Below are positions 1,970 to 43,678 of a DNA stretch of 43,741 nt, one piece after another. The notes below the pieces were generated by a model. The model was given only the letters and a program-made list of their open reading frames with translations. It was not told the DNA's origin and did not search any database. Where the stretch lies: sequence record NC_019724.1; one strand, 5' to 3'. Made by a program: the position numbers and the translations under genes. This DNA comes from Escherichia phage HK578. Each line of letters opens with the position of its first letter. Position 1 is the first letter of the stretch.

Positions 1970-3490
1970 ATGACCGTTAACGTTGACAACCAGCACCCGC
2001 TCTATGCGCGCATAGCGCCAGAGTGGAAAATGATCCGTGACTGCGTAGCAGGGGAGCGCGCCGTGAAGGCGTGCGGGCCATTGTACCTGCCACACCCCGC
2101 AAGCGGGGACACCACCGACCCGAAATCACGGGCACGCTATAAGGCATATAAGCAACGTGCTGTCTTCCTGAACGCCACCGCCCGCACACTGAATGCCCTG
2201 TTAGGCGTGGCCTTCGCCAAACCGGTGAGTCTGGACCTTTCCGGGGCAATGGCTGACCTGATTGATGACGTAGACGGCAGCGGGATGCCACTGGCGCAAC
2301 TACTGCGCGGCGCTATGTCGGAAGTGCTGCAATCGGGCCGCGCAGGCTTTATGGTGGACTATGACCGCCAGGCGCATTTTGACGAACTGGGTAACGTAGT
2401 GCCGCAGACCGCCGCTGAAATGGCGGCACACCGCCCGCTTATCCGCCTGTATACGGCTGAACAGATCATCAACTGGCGGCAGACACACGGCGTCGACACG
2501 CTAATCGTGCTGAAGGAGACGGACGAAATCAGCACCGAAGACCCGGACGACTTCGCAAACCACGAAGTTACGATCTGGACCGAGCTTCGCATGATTAACG
2601 GTGCGGCACACGCCCGCCGCTGGTTTTACAACGCGGACACGTCCGAGGTGCAAATGGACTTGCCGCGGGGATTCACCCGCACCGACCTTGTACCTCTGGT
2701 GGACGCTGCCGGTAACGCGCTTACGCAACTGCCTTTCTGTTGGTGTGGCGCGGTGGATAACAACGCGACACCGGACGCCGCACCGCTGGCGGATATTGCG
2801 TCCATCAACATTAAGCACTACAACGCCGAAGCAGACGTCGCCGAGATTGCGCACATCGTGGGGCAACCTACCCTCATTGCGACTGGTCTGACCCAATCAT
2901 GGGCGGACAAGAACCTGAAAGGCGGCATCGCGCTCGGGGCAACTAAGGGCGTTATCCTGGGCCAGAACATGGACGCTAAACTGCTTCAGGCGGAGGAGCG
3001 CAACTTGTCTGTTGCACTGTGTGAGCGCCGAGAATTGCAAATGGCTAAACTGGGGGCGGCCCTGGTCGAGAAGGGGACCGCACCCAAGACGGCAACCGAA
3101 GCGGCCTACGATGCGCAGACAGATAACAGTATCCTGTCACTGATTGCCGGTAACGTTGAGAAGGCTTTCAACCGTGCGCTGCAAATCGTTAAGCTGTTCA
3201 CCGGCGACACCGCCGACCAGCGCGTAACGCTGAACAAGTTCTACACTGAAATCACGGTTGATGCGCAGCTTATGACCGCGATGATGGCAGGTGTGCAGAC
3301 CGGTACTGTCCGACTTGCAGACTTTATCAAGTGGATGATGGCCCAGGGCGTTATTGATGACTCGCAAACCGTCGAGCAGGTGGAAGACGAACTGCGAAAT
3401 CAGAATCCATTGCCTCAAATGTCCCCGGATGCGGTAGAATCGACCGAAGAAGCCCCGGACGAGGTAGCGGACAATGGCGAAGACAATTAA
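1970..3490 (+). CDS. portal protein
   Basis: 506-aa ORF immediately after TerL with SD AAGGAAA; size, position and acidic C-terminus typical of portal. Confidence 0.75.
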   Translation: MTVNVDNQHPLYARIAPEWKMIRDCVAGERAVKACGPLYLPHPASGDTTDPKSRARYKAYKQRAVFLNATARTLNALLGVAFAKPVSLDLSGAMADLIDDVDGSGMPLAQLLRGAMSEVLQSGRAGFMVDYDRQAHFDELGNVVPQTAAEMAAHRPLIRLYTAEQIINWRQTHGVDTLIVLKETDEISTEDPDDFANHEVTIWTELRMINGAAHARRWFYNADTSEVQMDLPRGFTRTDLVPLVDAAGNALTQLPFCWCGAVDNNATPDAAPLADIASINIKHYNAEADVAEIAHIVGQPTLIATGLTQSWADKNLKGGIALGATKGVILGQNMDAKLLQAEERNLSVALCERRELQMAKLGAALVEKGTAPKTATEAAYDAQTDNSILSLIAGNVEKAFNRALQIVKLFTGDTADQRVTLNKFYTEITVDAQLMTAMMAGVQTGTVRLADFIKWMMAQGVIDDSQTVEQVEDELRNQNPLPQMSPDAVESTEEAPDEVADNGEDN

Positions 3491-4577
3491 TCAATATATG
3501 GCGGATCGAATGATTCGCCGTCACATCTTCACCCAGCGCCTGAGCAATGACCAGGCGCGAAGGGTGCTGTCCATGTGGGAGAAGTTCCGGCCTACATTAC
3601 TGGGGGAGCTGACCGAGTTGCTTGATGGCAAATCGTCAATGAATAACCGGGCACTTTCCACCCTGCTAACGCAAATCGACAAGACCGTAAAAACGGAACT
3701 GCGCACCGAGTTTAAGGCGTTGGCTGAAAGCCTTCAGGAGTTTGCAGACACCGAGGCCGATTATCTCGCCGACACATTGACGGCAGCGGTCCAGCCGGTG
3801 GTCGCCGTACCCGCGGTCGAGGTAGTTGGCGTAGTGACCGGTGCGCAGATCGCAGCGACTGCGATGAAAAACCCGTTCCTGGGAAATACCATGATGCAAT
3901 GGCCCGACTCACTTTCTGAGTGGACCAGGACGCAGATCGGTAATCAGGTGCGGGCGGGATTCATCCAGGGCAAGCCAACGATGGAAATTATCGCGGACGT
4001 GAGGCGCGCGCTAGGCGGTCGTAGTGCGCAAGCCATCTCAAGCGTTGTTAAGTCCGCAGTCAACCACTATGCGGCGACCGCCCGCGAACTAATGGTAAAA
4101 GCAAATGACGATATTCTCGAAGGTCGCCAATGGTTATCTACATTGGACACGCATACTTCTCCCATGTGCCAGCTACGCGATCGCCTGTTTTATCCGGTTG
4201 ATGTTACCCCCGACACCAAAGGAAAGCGCGGCGGGAAAGTGGTGGCTGGGTCACAATATGGCGCTGGTCCGGGCAAGCTGCATTATTGTTGCCGGTCTAC
4301 GGAGACGTGGAAGGTTAAAGGCATGGAAGATTGGCCCAGTGGTAAGCGTCCGGCACTGAAGGCTGACGCGGGTCGATTGCTGAGTGAGCAGGTCGACGCG
4401 CAGACCGATTTCTTCTCATGGGTGCAGCGCCAGCCGCGCCATATCCTGGAAGAATTATACGGAGTGCAACGCGCAGACCAGATTATGCGAGGCGTGAAAG
4501 TGCCGAAGATGTTCACTGATACCGGCGAACTAATGACTATTGCACAGCTTAAAAACCGGGGGTTATGGCGTGATTAA
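3474..4577 (+). CDS. head morphogenesis / minor capsid protein
   Basis: 367 aa, overlaps portal 3' end; position after portal as in Mu F / SPP1 gp7-like genes; family assignment from position only. Confidence 0.55.
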   Translation: MAKTINQYMADRMIRRHIFTQRLSNDQARRVLSMWEKFRPTLLGELTELLDGKSSMNNRALSTLLTQIDKTVKTELRTEFKALAESLQEFADTEADYLADTLTAAVQPVVAVPAVEVVGVVTGAQIAATAMKNPFLGNTMMQWPDSLSEWTRTQIGNQVRAGFIQGKPTMEIIADVRRALGGRSAQAISSVVKSAVNHYAATARELMVKANDDILEGRQWLSTLDTHTSPMCQLRDRLFYPVDVTPDTKGKRGGKVVAGSQYGAGPGKLHYCCRSTETWKVKGMEDWPSGKRPALKADAGRLLSEQVDAQTDFFSWVQRQPRHILEELYGVQRADQIMRGVKVPKMFTDTGELMTIAQLKNRGLWRD

Positions 4578-4899
4578 ATATGCAGCTATTGGACTGATTA
4601 TCGGTCTGGTGGTAGGATTCTGGCTAGGTGACTCCTATCGCACTGGCGTAGTGGCGGAGGCGGCGCAAGAAGCGCAAGCCCAAGCCCAACGGCAGCAAAC
4701 TAAAGTTGTTGAGCGCTCCGTGCAGGCCGAACAGGCACGCGACGTGGAATACCGGACTATCACGAAAGAGGTTGTTAAATATGTTACGCGCCCTAACCGC
4801 CCTGATTGTAGTTTTGATGCTGAGCGCGTGCGGATCAAGCAACGTGCCGTTGATGCCGCTAACGGAGTCGGCACTGCGACCGCCGTGCAAGTTCGATAA
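4570..4899 (+). CDS. putative i-spanin (Rz-like)
   Basis: GTG start after GGGGG SD; N-terminal TM helix IKYAAIGLIIGLVVGFWLG followed by charged helical periplasmic domain (AEAAQEAQAQAQRQQ...); overlapped by +1-frame lipoprotein ORF. Longer TTG-start version begins at 4540. Confidence 0.5.
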   Translation: MIKYAAIGLIIGLVVGFWLGDSYRTGVVAEAAQEAQAQAQRQQTKVVERSVQAEQARDVEYRTITKEVVKYVTRPNRPDCSFDAERVRIKQRAVDAANGVGTATAVQVR

Positions 4900-5011
4900 C
4901 CCGTCTGCGGACCCCGACGAAGATTTGATGATTGACGTGAAAAATATGGAATGCGGGGCTAAGCTAAGGGCGCAGGTGCTGGAGTTGCAGCAAATAATTA
5001 AGGGGCCGTAA
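4781..5011 (+). CDS. putative o-spanin (Rz1-like lipoprotein)
   Basis: ATG 4781 with SD AAGAGG; signal peptide MLRALTALIVVLMLSAC with lipobox LSAC; mature part short, Pro-rich, with Cys; in +1 frame overlapping 3' end of 4570..4899. Confidence 0.55.
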   Translation: MLRALTALIVVLMLSACGSSNVPLMPLTESALRPPCKFDNPSADPDEDLMIDVKNMECGAKLRAQVLELQQIIKGP

Positions 5012-5022
5012 TGGCCCCTTTT
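5002..5022 (+). terminator. intrinsic terminator after spanin genes
   Basis: GGGGCC-gtaat-GGCCCC followed by TTTT; stop codon of o-spanin lies in the loop; second hairpin GGGGC-tttc-GCCCC at ~5053-5066. Confidence 0.6.
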
Positions 5023-5077
5023 CGTCAGTCTCATTTTTGTGTCCTCGTTGTTGGGGCTTTCGCCCCGTTTGGTTTAG

Positions 5078-5485
5078 TTAAAGTGCTTCAAGAATCTCGT
5101 AAAACTTATTCGCCAGCGCCTGGCGACGTTCGAATTTCTCAGTGATAACCAATTCAGGGCGGTTAAATCTCTTTGCGTGTATGTTCCAATTGTGGATTTC
5201 CGTCTCCATTATTTTCTTACGGTTATAGTCGGTGTTTTTGATGCTAAATTCCTTGATTGCGTTGTTAAGAAAATCAGTCATATACTCAATGTCGGATATC
5301 GTAACTTCGAACGTGCGGGCTTCGATTACGCTATTGGTGCGAAGTACGACGACGCCGCCGTGGTAGGTGTCGACTACCATATACTTGTAAGTCACCCCGT
5401 CCCACTCCGGATCGAAAGGGCGACCAAATACGTCGTCGGCTTTCCAGACTTTCAGGTACGGTGTTTCTTTGATTAATGTTGGCAT
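5078..5485 (-). CDS. hypothetical protein (moron)
   Basis: 135-aa ORF from ATG 5485 (MPTLIKETPYLK...) with SD GAAGGAAAA; opposite strand to flanking head genes; appears AT-richer than neighbours by eye. Confidence 0.6.
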   Translation of the reverse strand: MPTLIKETPYLKVWKADDVFGRPFDPEWDGVTYKYMVVDTYHGGVVVLRTNSVIEARTFEVTISDIEYMTDFLNNAIKEFSIKNTDYNRKKIMETEIHNWNIHAKRFNRPELVITEKFERRQALANKFYEILEAL

Positions 5486-5520
5486 CTTGTTTTCCTTCAT
5501 ATCTCTGTTGGTGTGCAACC

Positions 5521-5550
5521 AATATACTGCAACCAATATCCGCAATGCAA
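5521..5550 (-). promoter_or_regulatory. sigma70-like promoter for 5078..5485
   Basis: minus strand TTGCAT-18 nt-TATATT; spacer and -10 overlap two TGCAACCAAT copies (5514-5523, 5528-5537). Confidence 0.4.
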
Positions 5551-5639
5551 GCGAATTTTGCGATTATTTTTATCGCTGATAATATTAAGGCGTGAAGTCA
5601 AGCGGGTGGCCCGCTTTGCCACAATCCCAGGGGGATAGC

Positions 5640-6344
5640 ATGAAACTTACTAAAGCAGAATATGACGCGTTGCCGGAAGGTATGAAGGCGCTTTTTGTTG
5701 CCGATGGTGACGGGTATAAATCAACGTTCATGACCGCCGAAGAAGTACAGGCGGAGATCAAGGGTCTGAAAGACAACAACGCGAAGCTGGTTAGCGAGAA
5801 GAAAGCAGAAGCCGAACGTCGCGCCGAAGCCGAGCGCCTTGCGAAAGAGAAAGAGGAAGCCGCCGCGCGCAAAAATGGCGACCTCGAAGCGATCGATAAG
5901 TCCTGGAAAGATAAGTTCGCAAAACATGAAGCGGACACATCGGGGAAAATCGAAGCCTACCGCAAGCAGATCCACGATCTCACCATCGGCAGCGCTGCCA
6001 AAGACCTGGCGTCGAAGCTGTTCGGTAAGAATGCGGGCATCATGCAACGCCACGTAATGGACCGCCTGACGCTGGAAGACGGCGAAGACGGCAGCTTGAA
6101 AGTGCGTGTCTTGCAGGATGGCAAACCGTCCGCGCTGACTATGGAAGAGCTTGAAAAAGAGTTCCGTAATAACGCCGATTTTGCATCCGTCCTGGCTGGC
6201 ACGCCAGCCGGTGGCGCTCCTAGCAAACCGACGCAGGTTGTCGAAGATGTGAAGTCGAAAATCACTATGGGCCATAGCTTCGGCATCACTGACCTTACGA
6301 AACAGGCAGGTGATATCATCGCTAAGATGGGCGACGACGAGTAA
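5640..6344 (+). CDS. scaffolding protein
   Basis: ATG 5640 with SD AGGGGGA; acidic, Ala/Glu/Lys-rich coiled-coil-like sequence (AEERRAEAERLAKEKEEAAARK) immediately upstream of major capsid gene. Confidence 0.6.
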   Translation: MKLTKAEYDALPEGMKALFVADGDGYKSTFMTAEEVQAEIKGLKDNNAKLVSEKKAEAERRAEAERLAKEKEEAAARKNGDLEAIDKSWKDKFAKHEADTSGKIEAYRKQIHDLTIGSAAKDLASKLFGKNAGIMQRHVMDRLTLEDGEDGSLKVRVLQDGKPSALTMEELEKEFRNNADFASVLAGTPAGGAPSKPTQVVEDVKSKITMGHSFGITDLTKQAGDIIAKMGDDE

Positions 6345-6441: not shown

Positions 6442-7542
6442 ATGTCTTTAACAGTGTTCCAGCGTAAACTCGTTACCGCGGTTACGCAAATGATCCCCGA
6501 CAACCTGAACGTTTTCAACGCCGCCGCCAATGGCGCTGTTGTTCTCGGTACTGGTGAAGTGCTGAAGGATGTTGTAGAGAAAATGTCCGTAGGCTTGATC
6601 GCCAACCTTGTTACCGACCGTAACGCCTACGCCCCTGTCGGTACTCCGGCAACCGCTAAAGTGCTGGCGCGTATGCTGACCAACTCGGTTAACCTGTCCG
6701 CGAAAGTGGGTCCGGTGGCAATCACTAAGGCTATGATGGCTAAAATCGAAACCAACGTTAACAGCGTTGCGGCTGAGATTGCGGCACAGGCTACTCAAGC
6801 GATTTTGCTGCACTACCTAAAAGCGGGTATCGGTGCAGGTAAAGCGGCGATCGAAAGCAACGCAGCGGCAAAATACACCCAACCGGCGCGCGTTGACGGC
6901 GTTGGCGGTCGTACCTTCCCTACCCTGGCAGACTTCCCGCTGGCTGCTTCTAAGTTCGGCGATCAGGCGTCTTTGATTAAGTCATGGTTTATGGACGGCG
7001 TTACCTGGGCAAACTTCATTGCGTACCAGGCACTCCCTTCCGCTGAACAGGTATTCGCAATTGGCGATCTCCAGGTAATGGGTGATGGTCTGGGCCGTCG
7101 CTTCATTATCTCCGATGCCGCTGCCGATGCTATGGGCGCAGGCAACATGCTGGGCCTGGTCCCTGGCGCGGTTGCAGTTACCACCAACGGCCTCGATATG
7201 CTGGCGCAGGAGAAAGGCGGTAACGAGAACATTGAGCGCTGGTGGCAGGGCGAGTTCGACTTCAACGTGGCTGTTAAGGGATATCGTCTGAAGGCGTCCG
7301 CTCGTACTCCGATCGAAGGCGTTCGCTCGTTCAAACTGGACGACATCACCACTTCCGCTAACTGGGAACTGGACCAGGGCCAGGTAGACAACGCACCGGC
7401 AACCGTGCAGGATGTTGGCGCCGTTGGTGATGGCGATACTAAAGGCCGTCGTAAGACCCAGGCCGCACAGGCAGTGCCTACTCGTCACATCAAGGAAACG
7501 GCGGGCGTACTGGTTACGCTGACTGCGACCACAGCGTCCTAA
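6442..7542 (+). CDS. major capsid protein
   Basis: 366 aa, SD AAAGGA, follows scaffold gene and is followed by a strong terminator; assignment by position and size. Confidence 0.65.
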   Translation: MSLTVFQRKLVTAVTQMIPDNLNVFNAAANGAVVLGTGEVLKDVVEKMSVGLIANLVTDRNAYAPVGTPATAKVLARMLTNSVNLSAKVGPVAITKAMMAKIETNVNSVAAEIAAQATQAILLHYLKAGIGAGKAAIESNAAAKYTQPARVDGVGGRTFPTLADFPLAASKFGDQASLIKSWFMDGVTWANFIAYQALPSAEQVFAIGDLQVMGDGLGRRFIISDAAADAMGAGNMLGLVPGAVAVTTNGLDMLAQEKGGNENIERWWQGEFDFNVAVKGYRLKASARTPIEGVRSFKLDDITTSANWELDQGQVDNAPATVQDVGAVGDGDTKGRRKTQAAQAVPTRHIKETAGVLVTLTATTAS

Positions 7543-29489: not shown

Positions 29490-31781
29490 TTACTTCCTGT
29501 AGCGATACATAACATCGCCCTCTGCGGCAAGCGGGAAGCCTTTCGCCCAAATAGGCAGGTCGCACATCAGCGCGCACAACTCCTCGGTTGTGTAGTCGTC
29601 AGTATCCGGCACTTCGGTGATCAATTCATCGTGTACGGACAGTACGATCTCATACCCCGCAGCTTCAACACCCGGCATGGACCATGCGAGGATATCGCGG
29701 CACAGCGCCTGCACGATGTTTTCCGTCAGTTTGCCGCCGTAGGTGTACTGGAATCCCCACTGGCGCGTCGTCTGATTCTCACCCTGATATTTAATGCGGG
29801 TGCTGGTGCGCTTCTTGCCGGTATCTTCGTCGATCTCGGTCGTCACTGACAGCGCAATGCCTGGATAACTCATAATACGCCCCGACGGCAACTCAATTTT
29901 CAACCACCACCCCGCGGCGTTCGGGTCGTCGCGCTCCTCGTCGAAGGTTGGGTCGTGCTTCGCCTTCGTGCGCACAATCTTGAGCGCTTTTCTACCGTCC
30001 GGGCGAACGTTCGCGCCAGCCCAGTATGCTTTGCCCGGATTGCGGATTGCACACAACACCGCGTCCTCAAGCTCGGCCCAAAATGCTACCGTCTTCGGGT
30101 GCGACTCACGCCACATACGTTTGATCGCATCACACGTCAGCCATACGTTTTTCGGCAGTATGTAAGTTGGGCGCTCGTCCTTCTTGCCAGGCTTCGGCGG
30201 GCGCTTCGCTTCGTTAATGCGGGCATATTCATAACCCCGTTTCGCCGCCGCCCAAATGTGATCGGGGAATGTGCCCTTCATCACTTCAGCCATCGCGTAA
30301 AGGTCAAGGCCCAGGTTTTTAGCGAACTGCAAGAACGCGGCAACGCCACCTCCATAGCCCAACCCCAATTCGCACGCCTTACCAATCTGGCGCAAGTCTT
30401 TGCGGTTGGCTTTAATGTATTCCGGGTCGAGGCCGAACATCTTACCGGCAGTTTCACAATAGATATCGCGTCCGGCCTTAAACACCATTAGCGCGGTTTT
30501 CTCGCCAGCGATCCAGGCGAGGCCACGCCCTTCCACGTTGGAGTAGTCCGCTACGACAAACTTCTTACCCTTCGCCGGAATAATGCACCCGCGAACAGTC
30601 GAGGCCGTTAGCTTCGATATGTCATACGCCCAGTGCGCTGTCCCGCGTAACAGGGAGTTGATGCCGTTGGTGAGCATGTGCGACCGCACCCAAAACGCTA
30701 CGTCGCTCTCGCCTTCACGGCGTTTAATCTTCCCTTCGTGGTCGTCGCTATACTCGCCGCGTGCCAGGTTTTGAGGCTGAAAGCCTTTACCGGCCCAGCG
30801 TAGCGTGCGCTTTGCGCCGCCATACTGGAGACACCCACGGCGGCGACCATCGGCGGATAGACCATTCACAAGCGGATTGTACTTAGTCGATGCCGTTGAT
30901 GACGCACCGAGGCGCATCTCGATAAGCACTTTGCCTTCGTCGGGGAAGTCTGGGTCTTCAAGCAGGTCGTTAAGCGTGGATTTCTGTGCGTTGTGGATTG
31001 TGAACGCAGGCGCGAGGTCGCGCAGCGCGGGCAAGAAGTCATTGCCGGTTAGCTTACCCCCGAAGCGCTCCCAGGCTTCTTCCTTCAATTCTTCCTTATG
31101 CGCTTGCACCGCTTTGATCGCGGCGTTCGCCAGGTCAACGTCCACGTAGAAGCCGCGGTCATTGATCAACTGGTCAATAAGCAGGATTTCGTCTTCCTTC
31201 GGCGTGTTGCCCCAGTCCGGTATGCGCCAATAGACTTCCCTCATAGCGATGATATCCAACGCGGCATAGCGCAGGAATTTGGCCCATTCTTCAGGGTGAG
31301 TCTCGCGGGTGTAGCGGCGGATTTTGTAGGTCTTAGGGGTAGGCTTACAGAATCGTTTGATCAGCGCCTTGCCAGCCTTATCCTTCGCGTGATCTGCGTC
31401 AACGCCCAGCACCTGGCACTGCATATCGAGACTACCCGGCAACGCGTGTCGAAAGGCCATAATCATGGTATCTTCGATCTGGCACACTGGCAGGTCAATG
31501 CCCCACTTCTCGCGAATGACCAGGCGGTCAAACAGGAGGCCGTTAGCCATCACGATTTTTGCTTTCTTGCGGGATACCCGGCGGAGCGCCTTGCGCAGTT
31601 CACGCGGCATTGTGGGGGACTCGGTGCAATCCCAGGTCTGTACGCGGCCCTCGTCGATGGCATAGGTGCAGATCATAATCTCGGTTGTCGGGTGCTCTGC
31701 GTAGGCGTATGCGCCCACTTTCTTCAGATCCACCCCGCTAAATGTCTCGGTATCGAGAAACAGGCGTTCGAAGTCTTTCAT
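29490..31781 (-). CDS. DNA polymerase, family A, with 3'-5' exonuclease domain
   Basis: 763 aa; Exo motif FLDTETFS; motif A-like DYSNVEGRGLAW, motif B-like RQIGKACELGLGYGGG, motif C VLSVHDELI. Confidence 0.9.
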   Translation of the reverse strand: MKDFERLFLDTETFSGVDLKKVGAYAYAEHPTTEIMICTYAIDEGRVQTWDCTESPTMPRELRKALRRVSRKKAKIVMANGLLFDRLVIREKWGIDLPVCQIEDTMIMAFRHALPGSLDMQCQVLGVDADHAKDKAGKALIKRFCKPTPKTYKIRRYTRETHPEEWAKFLRYAALDIIAMREVYWRIPDWGNTPKEDEILLIDQLINDRGFYVDVDLANAAIKAVQAHKEELKEEAWERFGGKLTGNDFLPALRDLAPAFTIHNAQKSTLNDLLEDPDFPDEGKVLIEMRLGASSTASTKYNPLVNGLSADGRRRGCLQYGGAKRTLRWAGKGFQPQNLARGEYSDDHEGKIKRREGESDVAFWVRSHMLTNGINSLLRGTAHWAYDISKLTASTVRGCIIPAKGKKFVVADYSNVEGRGLAWIAGEKTALMVFKAGRDIYCETAGKMFGLDPEYIKANRKDLRQIGKACELGLGYGGGVAAFLQFAKNLGLDLYAMAEVMKGTFPDHIWAAAKRGYEYARINEAKRPPKPGKKDERPTYILPKNVWLTCDAIKRMWRESHPKTVAFWAELEDAVLCAIRNPGKAYWAGANVRPDGRKALKIVRTKAKHDPTFDEERDDPNAAGWWLKIELPSGRIMSYPGIALSVTTEIDEDTGKKRTSTRIKYQGENQTTRQWGFQYTYGGKLTENIVQALCRDILAWSMPGVEAAGYEIVLSVHDELITEVPDTDDYTTEELCALMCDLPIWAKGFPLAAEGDVMYRYRK

Positions 31782-40575: not shown

Positions 40576-40594
40576 ATATGCAAGCGTGATATAG

Positions 40595-40627
40595 TCCCAG
40601 TGAGCTAAAACTTACTGGGACTTTTTT
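40595..40627 (+). terminator. terminator-like hairpin abutting the holin start codon
   Basis: TCCCAGT-12-nt loop-ACTGGGA followed by CTTTTTT, then ATG 40628 with no SD. Confidence 0.45.
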
Positions 40628-40918
40628 ATGGATAAGCTAAACGAGTGGCTATTCGCCCTGGCATGTCTGGCGGGTGGCTTCGTAGGCGCACGCCTTCATG
40701 GTGAGGCTACGAAAGGGCCGCTAAACTTCGTTTTGTATGTCGTAGTTGGCTTCCTGTGTGCCATATTTGGCGCACCGGCTATTGCCGAGTGGGCTGGTTT
40801 GTCGGGTGAGCGCACTGTCGCCGGTTTGGGCTTCGTAACCGCGATTTTCTGGATGCCAATCGCCGACCGGATCAGGGAGACTATTGCGTCGTTCCGACTT
40901 CCGGGGGGTGTAAAATGA
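40628..40918 (+). CDS. putative holin
   Basis: 96 aa with ~3 predicted TM segments and charged C-terminus, two genes upstream of the lysozyme gene. Confidence 0.55.
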   Translation: MDKLNEWLFALACLAGGFVGARLHGEATKGPLNFVLYVVVGFLCAIFGAPAIAEWAGLSGERTVAGLGFVTAIFWMPIADRIRETIASFRLPGGVK

Positions 40919-41160
40919 TTATCACCGTCCTGTTGTTTGTTATCATAGGGGCTTCGTCCCTGTTTAACGTGTATGCGCCGTCCGTCCAGGATGGCATCTT
41001 GGGCCGGGTGCTGTATCTGTTAACGGCAATGGTCTGTATTATCGGATTGCTGCAAACAGGAGACGTATCAGATACCACCTGGACCGCGTTAATCTGGCTG
41101 TTTGCATTGCGCACCCTGCGTAATGCTGTTTTGAATGGGGTAAAACATGCGATTCAGTGA
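40915..41160 (+). CDS. small membrane protein (second holin or antiholin-like)
   Basis: 81 aa, ~3 hydrophobic segments, SD GGGGGGTG, overlaps both neighbours. Confidence 0.5.
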   Translation: MIITVLLFVIIGASSLFNVYAPSVQDGILGRVLYLLTAMVCIIGLLQTGDVSDTTWTALIWLFALRTLRNAVLNGVKHAIQ

Positions 41161-41638
41161 TAACGGTCTACGATTTACGGCAGCATGGGAGACTTTCAGC
41201 CCAGTGCCGTATTTCGCGACTAAGAAAGAGCAGGCCCGCGGCCTGTACACCTGGGGTTATGGTCATACTGGCACTAATCCGCCTCGAAGCATTACCCGCG
41301 AGGAAGCGCTGGAACTGCTCAAGCGCGATGTGGCGTATGCCGAGGACTGGGTGAACAAATACGCGCATAAGAGCATTAACCAGGCGCAATTCGACGCGCT
41401 GGTGGACCTGGTAATCAATGCCGGTCCGGGGCCGATCGTACCGGATGACGTCGCGAATGATTTCGATGATGCGGTGCGACTGGGAGACTGGGCGAAGGTC
41501 CGTGCTACGCTGCCGCAGTTCCGAAAACAAGGCGGTGAAGTGCTTAAGGGTCTGGTGCGCCGTGCAATCGGCAGACAGGCGCTATTCGATGGTAAGCAGT
41601 GGGACGTTGCCGAGCGAATCGGTCGTAACGCTGCATAA
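41147..41638 (+). CDS. endolysin (GH24 lysozyme)
   Basis: 163 aa; catalytic-region pattern WETFSPVPYF...YTWGYGHTG and INQAQFDALVDLVINAG resembling lambda R / T4 e-type lysozymes. Confidence 0.85.
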   Translation: MRFSDNGLRFTAAWETFSPVPYFATKKEQARGLYTWGYGHTGTNPPRSITREEALELLKRDVAYAEDWVNKYAHKSINQAQFDALVDLVINAGPGPIVPDDVANDFDDAVRLGDWAKVRATLPQFRKQGGEVLKGLVRRAIGRQALFDGKQWDVAERIGRNAA

Positions 41639-41654
41639 GACGAGGTGACACGAT

Positions 41655-42056
41655 ATGTTAGATTCGATCTTGCGACGTAAAGAACGCATTATCAAGACAC
41701 TGCCCGCAGTGCAGAACCCAGAAGCGCGCCGCATCCTGGCAGGGGATATGAATGTATCAGGCGTCTTCGACAAGGCCGTGCCTGAAGGGACGCCGGTGGC
41801 GAGCGCTACCGTTACCATCACGCCAGCTACCGCCGCAGTTGGTGAGACCGCCGCCGCGACTGTTGCCATCCTGCCATCCGGCGCGACCAACAAGGCCGGA
41901 TCGTGGGTGTCGGCGAACCCTAACCGCGCCTCAATCAATCCGACTACCGGCGAAATCACCGCGAAAGCTGCGGGTAACGTCCGCATCGTTTGGGTGGCGT
42001 CCGACGGTAGCGGGGTGCAGGCTGACGCAGGCTTCACAGTAACGGCAGCAGAGTAA
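41655..42056 (+). CDS. Ig-like (Big_2-type) domain protein
   Basis: 133 aa; C-terminal ~80 aa Thr/Ala/Val-rich with pattern typical of bacterial Ig-like group 2 domains; followed by terminator. Confidence 0.5.
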   Translation: MLDSILRRKERIIKTLPAVQNPEARRILAGDMNVSGVFDKAVPEGTPVASATVTITPATAAVGETAAATVAILPSGATNKAGSWVSANPNRASINPTTGEITAKAAGNVRIVWVASDGSGVQADAGFTVTAAE

Positions 42057-42062
42057 ACCAAC

Positions 42063-42088
42063 AAGCCCGGTTAATTCCGGGCTTTTTA
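42063..42088 (+). terminator. intrinsic terminator
   Basis: AAGCCCGG-ttaatt-CCGGGCTT followed by TTTT. Confidence 0.7.
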
Positions 42089-42293: not shown

Positions 42294-43436
42294 ATGCACC
42301 CGCAAACTAAAATTACCGATGAGCAATTGATCGCAGAAATTCAGGCAGGGACTACGGTTAAAGAGATTGCGAAGAAATACGGGATTGCCCTGCGCAATGT
42401 CTATATGCGGAAAGCCCGCCTGTCGAAAAAAGGAATTGGGCACGGCAACGACGCCGTAATCCGCAAGCGCGTTGCCGATGGATTCGGCGTTAAGCGCGTA
42501 TCGGCCCTGGTGCGCGGCAATGGCGAAGAGGTCATGTCGTGGGTCATCACTGAGCAGGATAAGGAGCGCCAACTCGAAGCTATGCGCGCTGTTGTCGAAG
42601 GTATGAACAGCGAAATCACACCGGCAGCGCCAGTAAAGGCCCCGCCAGTCCCGATCCAGGCGCTCGACTTGCTCAACCTGTACACTGTGTCCGACTTCCA
42701 CTTGGGCATGTTGGCATGGGGTGAGGAGACTGGCGAAGACTGGGATATGGCGATTGCTGAAGACCTGTTCTACCGCTGGTTTGTCGAAGCCTTCGCCCGC
42801 GCACCGGACGCAGGCACTGCCGTTATCAATATCCTCGGCGATATGGCCCACTTTGACAGCCTTGATGCCGTCACACCAGCAAGCGGTCACGTACTGGACG
42901 CCGACACGCGATACCAGAAGTTGGTCCGCTATATGATACGCATGGTGCGCAACGTCGTAGAACTGGCGCTGCAAAAACACCACAAAGTCAAACTGCTAAT
43001 CGTCCAGGGTAATCATGACGAATCGGGTATGATTTGGCTTGCTGAGATGTTCAATACCTTGTATGAGAACGAGCCGCGCGTTGATGTGGACACGTCCCCG
43101 GACGTCTACAAAATGGTGCAGCACGGTAAGACTACGCTATTCTTCCACCACGGGCACAAAGCGCGATTCGATGTTATCGAGCAGGTTATGATCGCTAAAT
43201 TTAGACAGGCATTCGGGTCGAGCGAATACAGCTACGCGCACGTAGGCCATTTGCACCACCAGAAGATTGTCGAGTCTCGCAACATGATTGTTGAACAGCA
43301 CAGGACGCTCGCAGCGAAAGACGCCTACGCCAGCCGCGGCGGCTGGATGAGCGGTCGCAGTGCCAACGTCATTACCTACAGCGCCAACTACGGCGAAGTA
43401 GCGCGCTTAACCATTAGCCCGGAAATGTTGAAATGA
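42294..43436 (+). CDS. HTH domain fused to calcineurin-like metallophosphoesterase
   Basis: 380 aa; N-terminal HTH (TVKEIAKKYGIALRNVYMR); phosphoesterase motifs SDFHLG, GDMAHFD, LIVQGNHDE, FFHHGH, VGHLHH. Confidence 0.6.
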   Translation: MHPQTKITDEQLIAEIQAGTTVKEIAKKYGIALRNVYMRKARLSKKGIGHGNDAVIRKRVADGFGVKRVSALVRGNGEEVMSWVITEQDKERQLEAMRAVVEGMNSEITPAAPVKAPPVPIQALDLLNLYTVSDFHLGMLAWGEETGEDWDMAIAEDLFYRWFVEAFARAPDAGTAVINILGDMAHFDSLDAVTPASGHVLDADTRYQKLVRYMIRMVRNVVELALQKHHKVKLLIVQGNHDESGMIWLAEMFNTLYENEPRVDVDTSPDVYKMVQHGKTTLFFHHGHKARFDVIEQVMIAKFRQAFGSSEYSYAHVGHLHHQKIVESRNMIVEQHRTLAAKDAYASRGGWMSGRSANVITYSANYGEVARLTISPEMLK

Positions 43437-43652: not shown

Positions 43653-43678
43653 AGCCCGCCGATTTGGTGGGCTTTTTT
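43653..43678 (+). terminator. intrinsic terminator
   Basis: AGCCCGCC-gattt-GGTGGGCT followed by TTTTTT. Confidence 0.7.

Follow-up and report, generated by a model that had tools for sequence, protein, structure and literature searches.

A very probable two-component spanin of Escherichia phage HK578, housed in the head-gene block apart from holin and endolysin

Two overlapping genes resembling the phage lambda Rz/Rz1 pair lie among the head genes of Escherichia phage HK578 (NC_019724.1), several kilobases away from holin and endolysin, raising the question of what such a pair does in this position. In the window, that is, the whole stretch of 43,741 nucleotides analyzed here, an initial annotation had described an overlapped i-spanin/o-spanin architecture and had left two explanations standing, namely that the lysis genes are split or that the pair has a non-lysis role. 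Our analysis indicates that the pair is very probably the two-component spanin of HK578, serving the outer-membrane step of lysis from within the head-gene block. HK578 is a Dhillonvirus (an HK578/EP23-like coliphage) of the same genus as EP23, JL1 and SSL-2009a, and EP23, HK578, JL1, SSL-2009a and SO-1 are listed in the overlapped Jersey i-/o-spanin families (Kongari et al., 2018, BMC Bioinformatics 19:326, PMC6139136). The elements of the pair, hereafter referred to as the i-spanin and o-spanin genes, are the following.

4570-4899, plus strand: i-spanin gene (109 aa), with a GTG start at 4570 and a stop codon ending at 4899
4766-4771, plus strand: Shine-Dalgarno-like AAGAGG, 9 nt 5' of the o-spanin ATG and within the i-spanin coding sequence
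4781-5011, plus strand: o-spanin gene with an ATG start, encoding a 76-aa precursor and a 60-aa mature lipoprotein
5000-5020, no strand assigned: conserved hairpin rich in G+C (GGGGCC-loop-GGCCCC) with a T-run behind it, located by pattern scan

The N-terminus of the i-spanin is a membrane anchor, with residues 1-17 (MIKYAAIGLIIGLVVGF) showing a mean Kyte-Doolittle hydropathy of 2.1, and a hydropathy scan of the whole protein revealed no second hydrophobic stretch beyond these residues. The predicted topology is of type II, with a single N-terminal transmembrane domain and the rest of the protein in the periplasm. Charged residues make up 28 of the 109 positions, and Cys80 is the sole cysteine. 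A single-sequence AlphaFold2 model, used for secondary structure alone, shows residues 5-72 and 84-97 as helical, interrupted by a break over residues 73-83; its confidence is low (mean pLDDT 59), but it agrees with the two helices and linker of the short EP23-to-SO-1 i-spanin subfamily (PMC6139136). The protein is 109 aa long in HK578, EP23, BMA1 and mckay and 102 aa long in seven further relatives, a difference in the C-terminal tail that fits the variable i-spanin C-terminus described for the Jersey family (PMC6139136).

The o-spanin gene lies in the +1 frame relative to the i-spanin gene, (4781-4570) mod 3 being 1, and 119 nt are common to both genes, the o-spanin gene running past the end of its partner, as defines the "overlapped" class. 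Its precursor begins MLRALTALIVVLMLSAC and contains an L-S-A-C lipobox (MLRALTALIVVLMLSA, followed by C17) with Gly at position +2. The coordinates, the +1 frame, the LSAC lipobox and the anchor of the i-spanin are thus all as initially claimed, and a lipoprotein signal, whose absence had been named as telling against the proposal, was found by the pattern and hydropathy scan through which such signals were judged. An outer-membrane sorting signal (+2 Gly with no Asp, +3 Ser) is present in 11 of 11 sequences, and a genome-wide scan detected no C-terminal hydrophobic segment in the o-spanin. The description of the product as a Pro-rich lipoprotein holds for the lipoprotein part, while its proline content is merely moderate (7 of 60 mature residues, 12%). 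The mature o-spanin of lambda is 40 aa long, with a proline content of 25% and a single Cys; compared with it, the HK578 protein is longer and poorer in proline, and has two periplasmic cysteines, Cys36 and Cys58, besides the lipobox Cys17.

Profile searches against PHROG matched the i-spanin to phrog_2536, "Rz-like spanin" (E = 2.5e-36), and the o-spanin to two further "Rz-like spanin" profiles, phrog_5672 (E = 2.4e-26) and phrog_1267 (E = 9.5e-12). Neither protein matched any Pfam family at E ≤ 0.01 or came near the cut-off in NCBIfam, where the weak matches were hydrophobic-segment noise. The pair is thus linked to lambda Rz/Rz1 through architecture and through the PHROG and Jersey families, with no sequence homology to lambda detected, and it stands outside the Rz and Rz1 sequence families. 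The likeness to lambda consists of a type II inner-membrane helical protein paired with a small +1-frame outer-membrane lipoprotein, both with periplasmic cysteines; unlike the embedded Rz/Rz1 genes, those of HK578 are overlapped, and they lie apart from the holin and endolysin genes. The overlapped architecture is the same as that of the Jersey family EP23-to-SO-1 subfamily, without material difference. The i-spanin is 36-42% identical to i-spanins of Jerseyvirus, Kagunavirus and a lambdoid Klebsiella phage, with 17 invariant columns including Cys80, and the o-spanin is 41-45% identical to those of Jerseyvirus (Shelanagig) and Kagunavirus (K1ind2); for Shelanagig and K1ind2 these identities extend over the entire length of the proteins. 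Shared motifs comprise VKY..P.R..C.F in the i-spanin and PPCK and DEDL..DV.N..C in the o-spanin; Cys80, Cys36 and Cys58 are also present in the Jerseyvirus and Kagunavirus homologues, and two o-spanin cysteines are described as constant across the Jersey family (PMC6139136). The spanin identity originally proposed is supported by these PHROG matches, by Jersey family homology and by all the sequence-level defining features tested. The pair and its head-gene position are already catalogued for the phage group of HK578 and are ordinary in it, and several GenBank records carry the i-spanin/o-spanin annotation; the literature searched yielded no experimental test, by complementation or knockout, of a Jersey-type spanin family. 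As a separate observation, many public Dhillonvirus records label one or both spanin genes "hypothetical" or choose an internal ATG as the o-spanin start, which leaves the protein without a signal peptide, and one PHROG profile appears to carry this same truncation.

Conservation and constraint were assessed on an alignment of 11 genomes (the HK578 stretch and 10 related phages). The spanin region occurs in 156 phage records, with query coverage of at least 80% in 155, and its DNA is 90-96% identical to that of the EP23, JL1, SSL-2009a and SO-1 group. Identity to EP23 is ~96%, with 3 differences in 109 aa for the i-spanin and 1 in 76 aa for the o-spanin. Where just one of the two spanin frames is read, that frame shows purifying selection. 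Across the 10 relatives, pN/pS is 0.24 for the i-frame in the part read only as i-spanin and 0.16 for the o-frame in the 109 nt read only as o-spanin, against 3.56 and 2.77 for the other two frames; wrong-frame pN/pS is at least 1.0 in the single-frame parts, and within the overlap both frames are intermediate. Variable sites in the o-only part fall predominantly on the third codon position of the o-frame (24 of 38, chi-square p = 2e-4). The lipobox, as L[ST]AC, and all three o-spanin cysteines are invariant in the 11 genomes, as are the o-spanin ATG and the AAGAGG sequence upstream of it, and the i-spanin transmembrane anchor and Cys80 are kept in 11 of 11. These data bear on whether the i-spanin frame alone is real and 4781-5011 a chance overlapping ORF with a fortuitous lipobox, a reading that could draw on the several GenBank records that omit the o-spanin or start it at the equivalent of 4853. 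The low pN/pS of the o-only part and its third-position excess contradict it, and the invariant start codon, Shine-Dalgarno-like sequence, lipobox and cysteines, together with the identity to annotated Jerseyvirus and Kagunavirus o-spanins, also speak against it, leaving it extremely improbable.

The genomic setting of the pair and of the other lysis genes is defined by the following features.

3474-4577, plus strand: head-morphogenesis gene (SPP1 gp7/Mu F-like; phrog_241, E = 1e-114), directly 5' of the i-spanin gene
5637-6344: scaffold gene (phrog_206, E = 2e-51)
40628-40918, plus strand: first of two adjacent holin-family genes; inner-membrane step of lysis
40915-41160, plus strand: second holin-family gene, also inner-membrane step of lysis; the two genes match phrog_2359 (E = 9.5e-32) and phrog_2508 (E = 1e-26)
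41147-41638, plus strand: endolysin of the lysozyme family (phrog_7, E = 9.4e-36); peptidoglycan step of lysis

The phrog_241 and phrog_206 matches bear out the placement of the pair between a head-morphogenesis gene and the scaffold region, and the GTG start of the i-spanin overlaps the head-morphogenesis stop codon (GTGATTAA). With the spanins downstream of the endolysin across the record ends, the distance amounts to ~6.7 kb (43741-41638+4570), close to the ~7 kb first estimated, and the same stretch is contiguous in records that start elsewhere, such as that of BMA1. PHROG matches agreed with the earlier location of holin and lysozyme at 40.6-41.6 kb, and ORF, PHROG and Pfam searches found nothing spanin-like adjoining them. 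In a six-frame scan of the genome for lipoprotein signals, the o-spanin was the only ORF with such a signal in a plausible coding context, and no candidate for a unimolecular spanin of the T1 gp11 type was detected. Two other matches considered as lipoprotein or u-spanin candidates, at 30678 and 33311, were rejected as lying antisense to long minus-strand genes. The anti-Tmn gene of Dhillonvirus was likewise rejected as a spanin neighbor, its published position being ORF35, elsewhere in the genome; the paper on this gene mentions spanin solely in a reference.

A separate spanin pair by the endolysin had been named at the outset as a finding that would overturn the proposal, and the ORF directly after the endolysin (41655-42056) does contain another one in a different frame (41752-42042), in coordinates that mimic an embedded Rz/Rz1 arrangement. 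Were this a second, canonical spanin, the pair at 4570-5011 would be redundant or a relic. The 133-aa product of the outer ORF, however, carries a Big_2 Ig-like domain (Pfam E = 6.6e-10; phrog_215 E = 1.1e-24) and lacks an N-terminal transmembrane segment, and the internal ORF has neither signal peptide nor lipobox and no family match. We therefore rejected this embedded pair and give next to no weight to the presence of a second spanin. The analysis confirms that the lysis set of HK578 is complete, comprising two holin-family genes, an endolysin and the two-component spanin.

The gene order of related phages, proposed as a check by the initial annotation, revealed the same split layout in Dhillonvirus, Jerseyvirus and Kagunavirus. 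A head-block slot for the spanins, apart from the holin-holin-endolysin genes, is common to the Dhillonvirus records examined. Salmonella phage Shelanagig (Jerseyvirus) and Escherichia phage K1ind2 (Kagunavirus, ORF5/6), both Guernseyvirinae, share with HK578 the overlapped spanin layout and a gene order that runs from head morphogenesis through the spanins to scaffold and major capsid, the holin and endolysin genes lying several kb upstream. Their spanins are longer than those of HK578 (128-aa i-spanin, 87-aa o-spanin), and the start/stop overlap of HK578 is missing in both because one more gene, listed as "capsid decoration protein" in Shelanagig and "putative tail protein" in K1ind2, intervenes between head morphogenesis and spanins. 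Spanins apart from the other lysis genes have been stated for the related phage Schulenberg (PMC6763661), and the same PHROG set is given for Jerseyvirus SeF1 (PMC9409062); the Shelanagig genome announcement makes no mention of lysis genes, nor the Ioannina phage paper of spanins. In the lambdoid Klebsiella phage 2b LV-2017, homologues of both genes directly follow holin and lysozyme in a canonical cassette.

The o-spanin stop codon sits in the loop of the 5000-5020 hairpin, which has a minimum free energy of -15.4 kcal/mol (z = -2.7) and, among the 10 relatives, an invariant GGGGCC/GGCCCC core stem with a variable loop. This hairpin is likely an intrinsic terminator ending a terminase-to-spanin unit, and its minus strand has a terminator-like form as well. 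Since further terminator-like hairpins at 42063-42084 and 43653-43673 intervene between endolysin and spanins, co-transcription of the spanins with holin and endolysin is unlikely. From these sequence features we infer the timing of spanin expression: because the i-spanin gene begins within the stop codon region of its upstream neighbor and the likely hairpin terminator closes the unit, the pair is proposed to be made late, probably together with the terminase, portal and head-morphogenesis proteins. It is conceivable, though improbable, that the position of the spanins at the end of the terminase-portal-head-morphogenesis unit is functional and no accident of history, with the start/stop overlap and the stop codon in the terminator loop setting spanin dosage or timing, either through coupling to head-gene translation or through a link between terminator folding and o-spanin translation. 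Retention of the head-block slot in Dhillonvirus and Guernseyvirinae would be consistent with selection on such grounds and equally with simple vertical inheritance.

Location between head-morphogenesis and scaffold genes, the overlap of its start with the head-morphogenesis stop and an apparent transcription unit other than that of holin and endolysin could all be taken to link the pair to a non-lysis role, be it in superinfection exclusion or receptor masking (T5 Llp, Cor-like) or as an aid to capsid assembly. Yet both proteins match spanin families, homologues of both occupy the canonical holin-lysozyme-spanin cassette of a lambdoid phage, and the genome would otherwise be without any spanin. 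Capsid assembly is, moreover, cytoplasmic, so exported, membrane-anchored proteins are unlikely helpers. Split lysis genes are also well documented, T4 pseT.3/pseT.2 being a precedent for spanin genes away from holin and endolysin (PMC6139136), although the two T4 spanin genes are separated, without overlap, and represent another family, and the T4 holin and endolysin genes are themselves apart. We consider a non-lysis role very unlikely. The sequence evidence favors split lysis genes because the pair is the only spanin candidate, its layout is common to Jerseyvirus and Kagunavirus, and its homologues stand in the Klebsiella phage cassette; of the two explanations first offered, the split is upheld and the non-lysis role is not.

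The steps by which a spanin pair so placed would act are modeled on lambda Rz/Rz1 biology, reportedly established by Berry et al. in 2012 and Rajaure et al. in 2015. The i-spanin would hold its N-terminal helix in the inner membrane, with the charged helical domain extending into the periplasm. The o-spanin would be translated in the +1 frame from its own ribosome-binding site, exported, cut after Ala16 and lipidated at Cys17, and, with Gly in place of Asp at position +2, sent to the outer membrane. The C-terminal parts of the two proteins would bind each other, and disulfide-linked homodimers are predicted through Cys80 of the i-spanin and Cys36 and Cys58 of the o-spanin. The peptidoglycan mesh would keep these complexes inactive until holin triggering and digestion of the wall by the endolysin allowed the spanins to fuse inner and outer membranes. 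Spanins would wait passively for wall degradation, and their gene position need not follow the holin clock, which would account for the tolerance and stable inheritance of separated lysis genes.

Beyond correct annotation, the significance of the pair is small; what it illustrates is that a phage can have its lysis genes at separate sites, a point relevant to automated annotation and to the engineering of Dhillonvirus phages for therapy.

Two plus-strand open reading frames make up the spanin pair of HK578:

4570-4899, +, i-spanin ORF, GTG start, 109 aa
4781-5011, +, o-spanin ORF, +1 frame, ATG start, 76 aa

The i-spanin protein opens MIKYAAIGLIIGLVVGFWLG..., where 17 residues with a mean hydropathy of 2.1 form its only strongly hydrophobic segment, at the N-terminus, and continues into an extended charged region with many Ala, Gln and Glu residues; charged residues account for 28 of its 109 positions, and its sole cysteine is Cys80. 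The N-terminal sequence of the o-spanin, MLRALTALIVVLMLSAC, begins with a positively charged n-region and continues through a hydrophobic core to the lipobox L-S-A-C17, as detected by lipoprotein-signal scan, with Gly at +2 as an outer-membrane sorting signal; besides Cys17, the protein carries Cys36 and Cys58. Re-reading of the ORFs and the o-spanin lipobox from the sequence bore out the coordinates, frame and lipobox of the initial annotation, although its description of the o-spanin as "Pro-rich" mildly overstates a content of 7 prolines in 60 mature residues. The genes share 119 nt, with the o-spanin gene running 112 nt beyond the end of the i-spanin gene, which is the "overlapped" spanin architecture. 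A Shine-Dalgarno-like AAGAGG lies 9 nt upstream of the internal ATG that starts the o-spanin, and the i-spanin GTG overlaps the TAA of the upstream head-morphogenesis gene (GTGATTAA).

The lipoprotein-signal scan, run on the whole genome in six frames and from every start codon, matched the o-spanin ORF and two others, both artefacts antisense to long minus-strand genes. The pair region was also aligned with that of 10 related phages and the 11 genomes examined base by base, revealing DNA identities to the relatives of 79-97% and a coding part without indels.

pN/pS in each reading frame of the aligned spanin region
Region; coordinates; i-frame; o-frame; third frame
i-spanin only; 4570-4780; 0.24; 1.01; 2.24
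overlap; 4781-4878; 0.49; 0.74; 2.94
o-spanin only; 4900-5008; 3.56; 0.16; 2.77

Variable sites fall at codon position 3 of the i-frame in 41 of 74 cases in the i-spanin-only part, and of the o-frame in 24 of 38 cases in the o-spanin-only part (chi-square p ~2e-4 in each non-overlapped region), while variable columns make up 28% of the overlap versus 35% elsewhere. The start codons, the Shine-Dalgarno-like sequence, the lipobox L[ST]AC and the cysteines (i-spanin Cys80; o-spanin Cys17, Cys36 and Cys58) are invariant in all 11 genomes. The pN/pS values, codon-position skew and invariant features together establish that both frames are real genes. The i-spanin varies in length, with 109 aa in HK578, EP23, BMA1 and mckay and 102 aa in the seven other relatives (aligned loci L006-L011 and L013), owing to an earlier stop codon inside the o-spanin overlap (4870-4899 area); the protein can therefore probably dispense with its extreme C-terminus.

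Homology searches matched the i-spanin to phrog_2536 (E = 2.5e-36) and the o-spanin to phrog_5672 (E = 2.4e-26) and phrog_1267 (E = 9.5e-12), each annotated as "Rz-like spanin". Neither protein has a match in Pfam or NCBIfam, so that what links them to lambda Rz/Rz1 is architecture and not detectable sequence homology: the pair would work like Rz/Rz1, yet lies outside the lambda sequence families. HK578 is a Dhillonvirus (HK578/EP23-like coliphage), and the 3.1 kb around the pair match 157 phage records at 80-99% identity, nearly all from Escherichia or Shigella phages. HK578 is listed with EP23, JL1, SSL-2009a and SO-1 in the overlapped "Jersey" i-/o-spanin families (Kongari et al., 2018, PMC6139136), where the EP23-to-SO-1 group forms a shorter subfamily with two helices, a short linker and a variable extreme C-terminus, and with two constant cysteines in its o-spanins (PMC6139136). 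Consistent with this description, a low-confidence single-sequence model of the i-spanin (mean pLDDT 59) places helices at 5-72 and 84-97, with Cys80 in the segment between. The pair is thus a member of the Jersey family, EP23 subfamily. The spanin identification is correct and was already known, the genes being annotated as spanins in RefSeq EP23, BMA1, PaulFeyerabend, KarlBarth, TheodorHerzl, Gluttony and EK99P-1. Because the literature searched yielded no experimental test of this spanin family, its function rests on homology and architecture.

In many other records one or both genes are labeled "hypothetical protein". The EP23 RefSeq and BMA1 records (L001:2954-3112 and L002:2954-3112) start the o-spanin at an internal ATG, corresponding to 4853-5011 in HK578, and the resulting 52-aa product loses the signal peptide and lipobox. 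The 47-position phrog_5672 profile aligns to o-spanin residues 32-76 only, which suggests truncated entries of this kind as its source.

The pair lies among the head genes, far from the holins and endolysin:

573-1958, large terminase
1970-3490, portal
3474-4577, head morphogenesis
4570-5011, spanin pair
5637-6344, scaffold
6442-7542, major head protein
40628-40918 and 40915-41160, holin-family genes
41147-41638, endolysin

Both the head-morphogenesis and scaffold neighbors and the lack of a spanin beside the holin and endolysin agree with the initial annotation. Immediately downstream of the endolysin, the ORF at 41655-42056 encloses a shorter out-of-frame ORF, and the coordinates by themselves would suggest an embedded Rz/Rz1 pair. 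This arrangement was rejected: the outer ORF encodes a 133-aa Big_2 Ig-like protein, annotated in BMA1 as a short "major tail protein", and the internal one has no signal sequence. With the outer ORF assigned to an Ig-domain protein, the pair is the single spanin candidate in the genome, located ~6.7 kb downstream of the endolysin. This distance is close to the ~7 kb initially proposed, and the "genome ends" it was said to span are only a consequence of where the record begins: in BMA1 a single strand carries, in unbroken order, holin, holin, lysin, Ig-domain gene, phosphoesterase, small ORF, terS, terL, portal, head morphogenesis and spanins. The phosphoesterase gene (42294-43436) separates the small terminase gene from the lysis block, and its 380-aa product belongs to the calcineurin-like phosphoesterase/DNA-repair exonuclease family (phrog_704, E = 2.3e-161).

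Dhillonviruses differ in what lies between the o-spanin terminator and the scaffold gene. Most of those examined carry a 765-bp minus-strand gene, annotated in Ioannina as "nucleotide modification associated domain 5"; nmad5 has been reported as the trigger of the Tmn defence system (PMC11846954). HK578 instead has a 135-155-aa ORF (5078-5545, minus strand) with no Pfam or PHROG match, common only to PTXU06/Zar3M (92%), SM_W22 (71%) and Serratia and Erwinia siphophages (~54%), and no nmad5 homologue was found anywhere in the genome (tblastn, best E = 0.28).

The distance from the holin and endolysin had left two readings, split lysis genes or a non-lysis role for the pair. Gene order in related phages reveals that the split layout is common to Jerseyvirus and Kagunavirus. 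In Jerseyvirus Shelanagig the order is capsid morphogenesis, decoration, small ORF, i-spanin/o-spanin, scaffold and major capsid, with holin and endolysin at 39.6-40.4 kb of a 42.5 kb record; Kagunavirus K1ind2 has the same order, and the spanins of both are homologous to the HK578 pair (36-45% identity, with motifs and cysteines in common). Spanin genes apart from holin and endolysin have precedents in the Guernseyvirinae-like phage Schulenberg (PMC6763661) and in T4 (PMC6139136). The Golestan and SeF1 papers present the same gene-numbering gap, and the four PHROGs of the SeF1 spanins and holins are identical to those of HK578 (PMC9409062). In the lambdoid Klebsiella phage 2b LV-2017, an i-spanin homologue directly follows an S-family holin and lysozyme. 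There, an unannotated 80-aa o-spanin ORF (L005:4577-4819, KY271395.1), with lipobox LCSC and o-spanin motifs PPCK and DEDL..DV, overlaps and lies downstream of the annotated "protein spanin", completing a canonical holin-lysozyme-spanin cassette. That the family occurs both in a canonical cassette and in the head-gene slot favors a gene pair that was relocated and still serves lysis over one with a different function.

A hairpin at 5000-5020 followed by a T-run (core stem GGGGCC/GGCCCC; -15.4 kcal/mol, z = -2.7) holds the o-spanin stop TAA (5009-5011) in its loop. The core stem is invariant in the 10 relatives, and the loop (GTAAT, GTGAA, GTGAT or ATAAT) keeps an in-frame stop codon in every case; another terminator-like hairpin lies downstream (5052-5067). 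From the overlap of start and stop codons at the junction of head-morphogenesis and i-spanin genes, and from the conserved hairpin that closes the unit, we infer that the pair would be expressed with the head genes. Terminator-like hairpins at 40593-40622, 42063-42084 and 43653-43673, identified by pattern match only, suggest that the holin-endolysin and terminase-to-spanin blocks may be separate transcription units; that at 42063-42084, after the Ig-domain ORF, is a perfect palindrome with a terminator score on both strands. Selection of the head-module position and stop-in-terminator-loop arrangement for dosage or timing control would be an unlikely reading.

Taking anatomy, constraint on both frames, family membership and synteny from the pair itself, and the steps of lysis from lambda Rz/Rz1, the i-spanin would be anchored in the inner membrane, and the o-spanin would be lipidated at Cys17 and transported to the outer membrane. 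The two would join to bridge the periplasm, with formation of disulfide-linked dimers, and after release of the endolysin by the holins and breakdown of the wall, the spanin complexes would fuse both membranes. Spanins are thought to build up and then await wall degradation, and physical linkage to the holin would therefore be unneeded.
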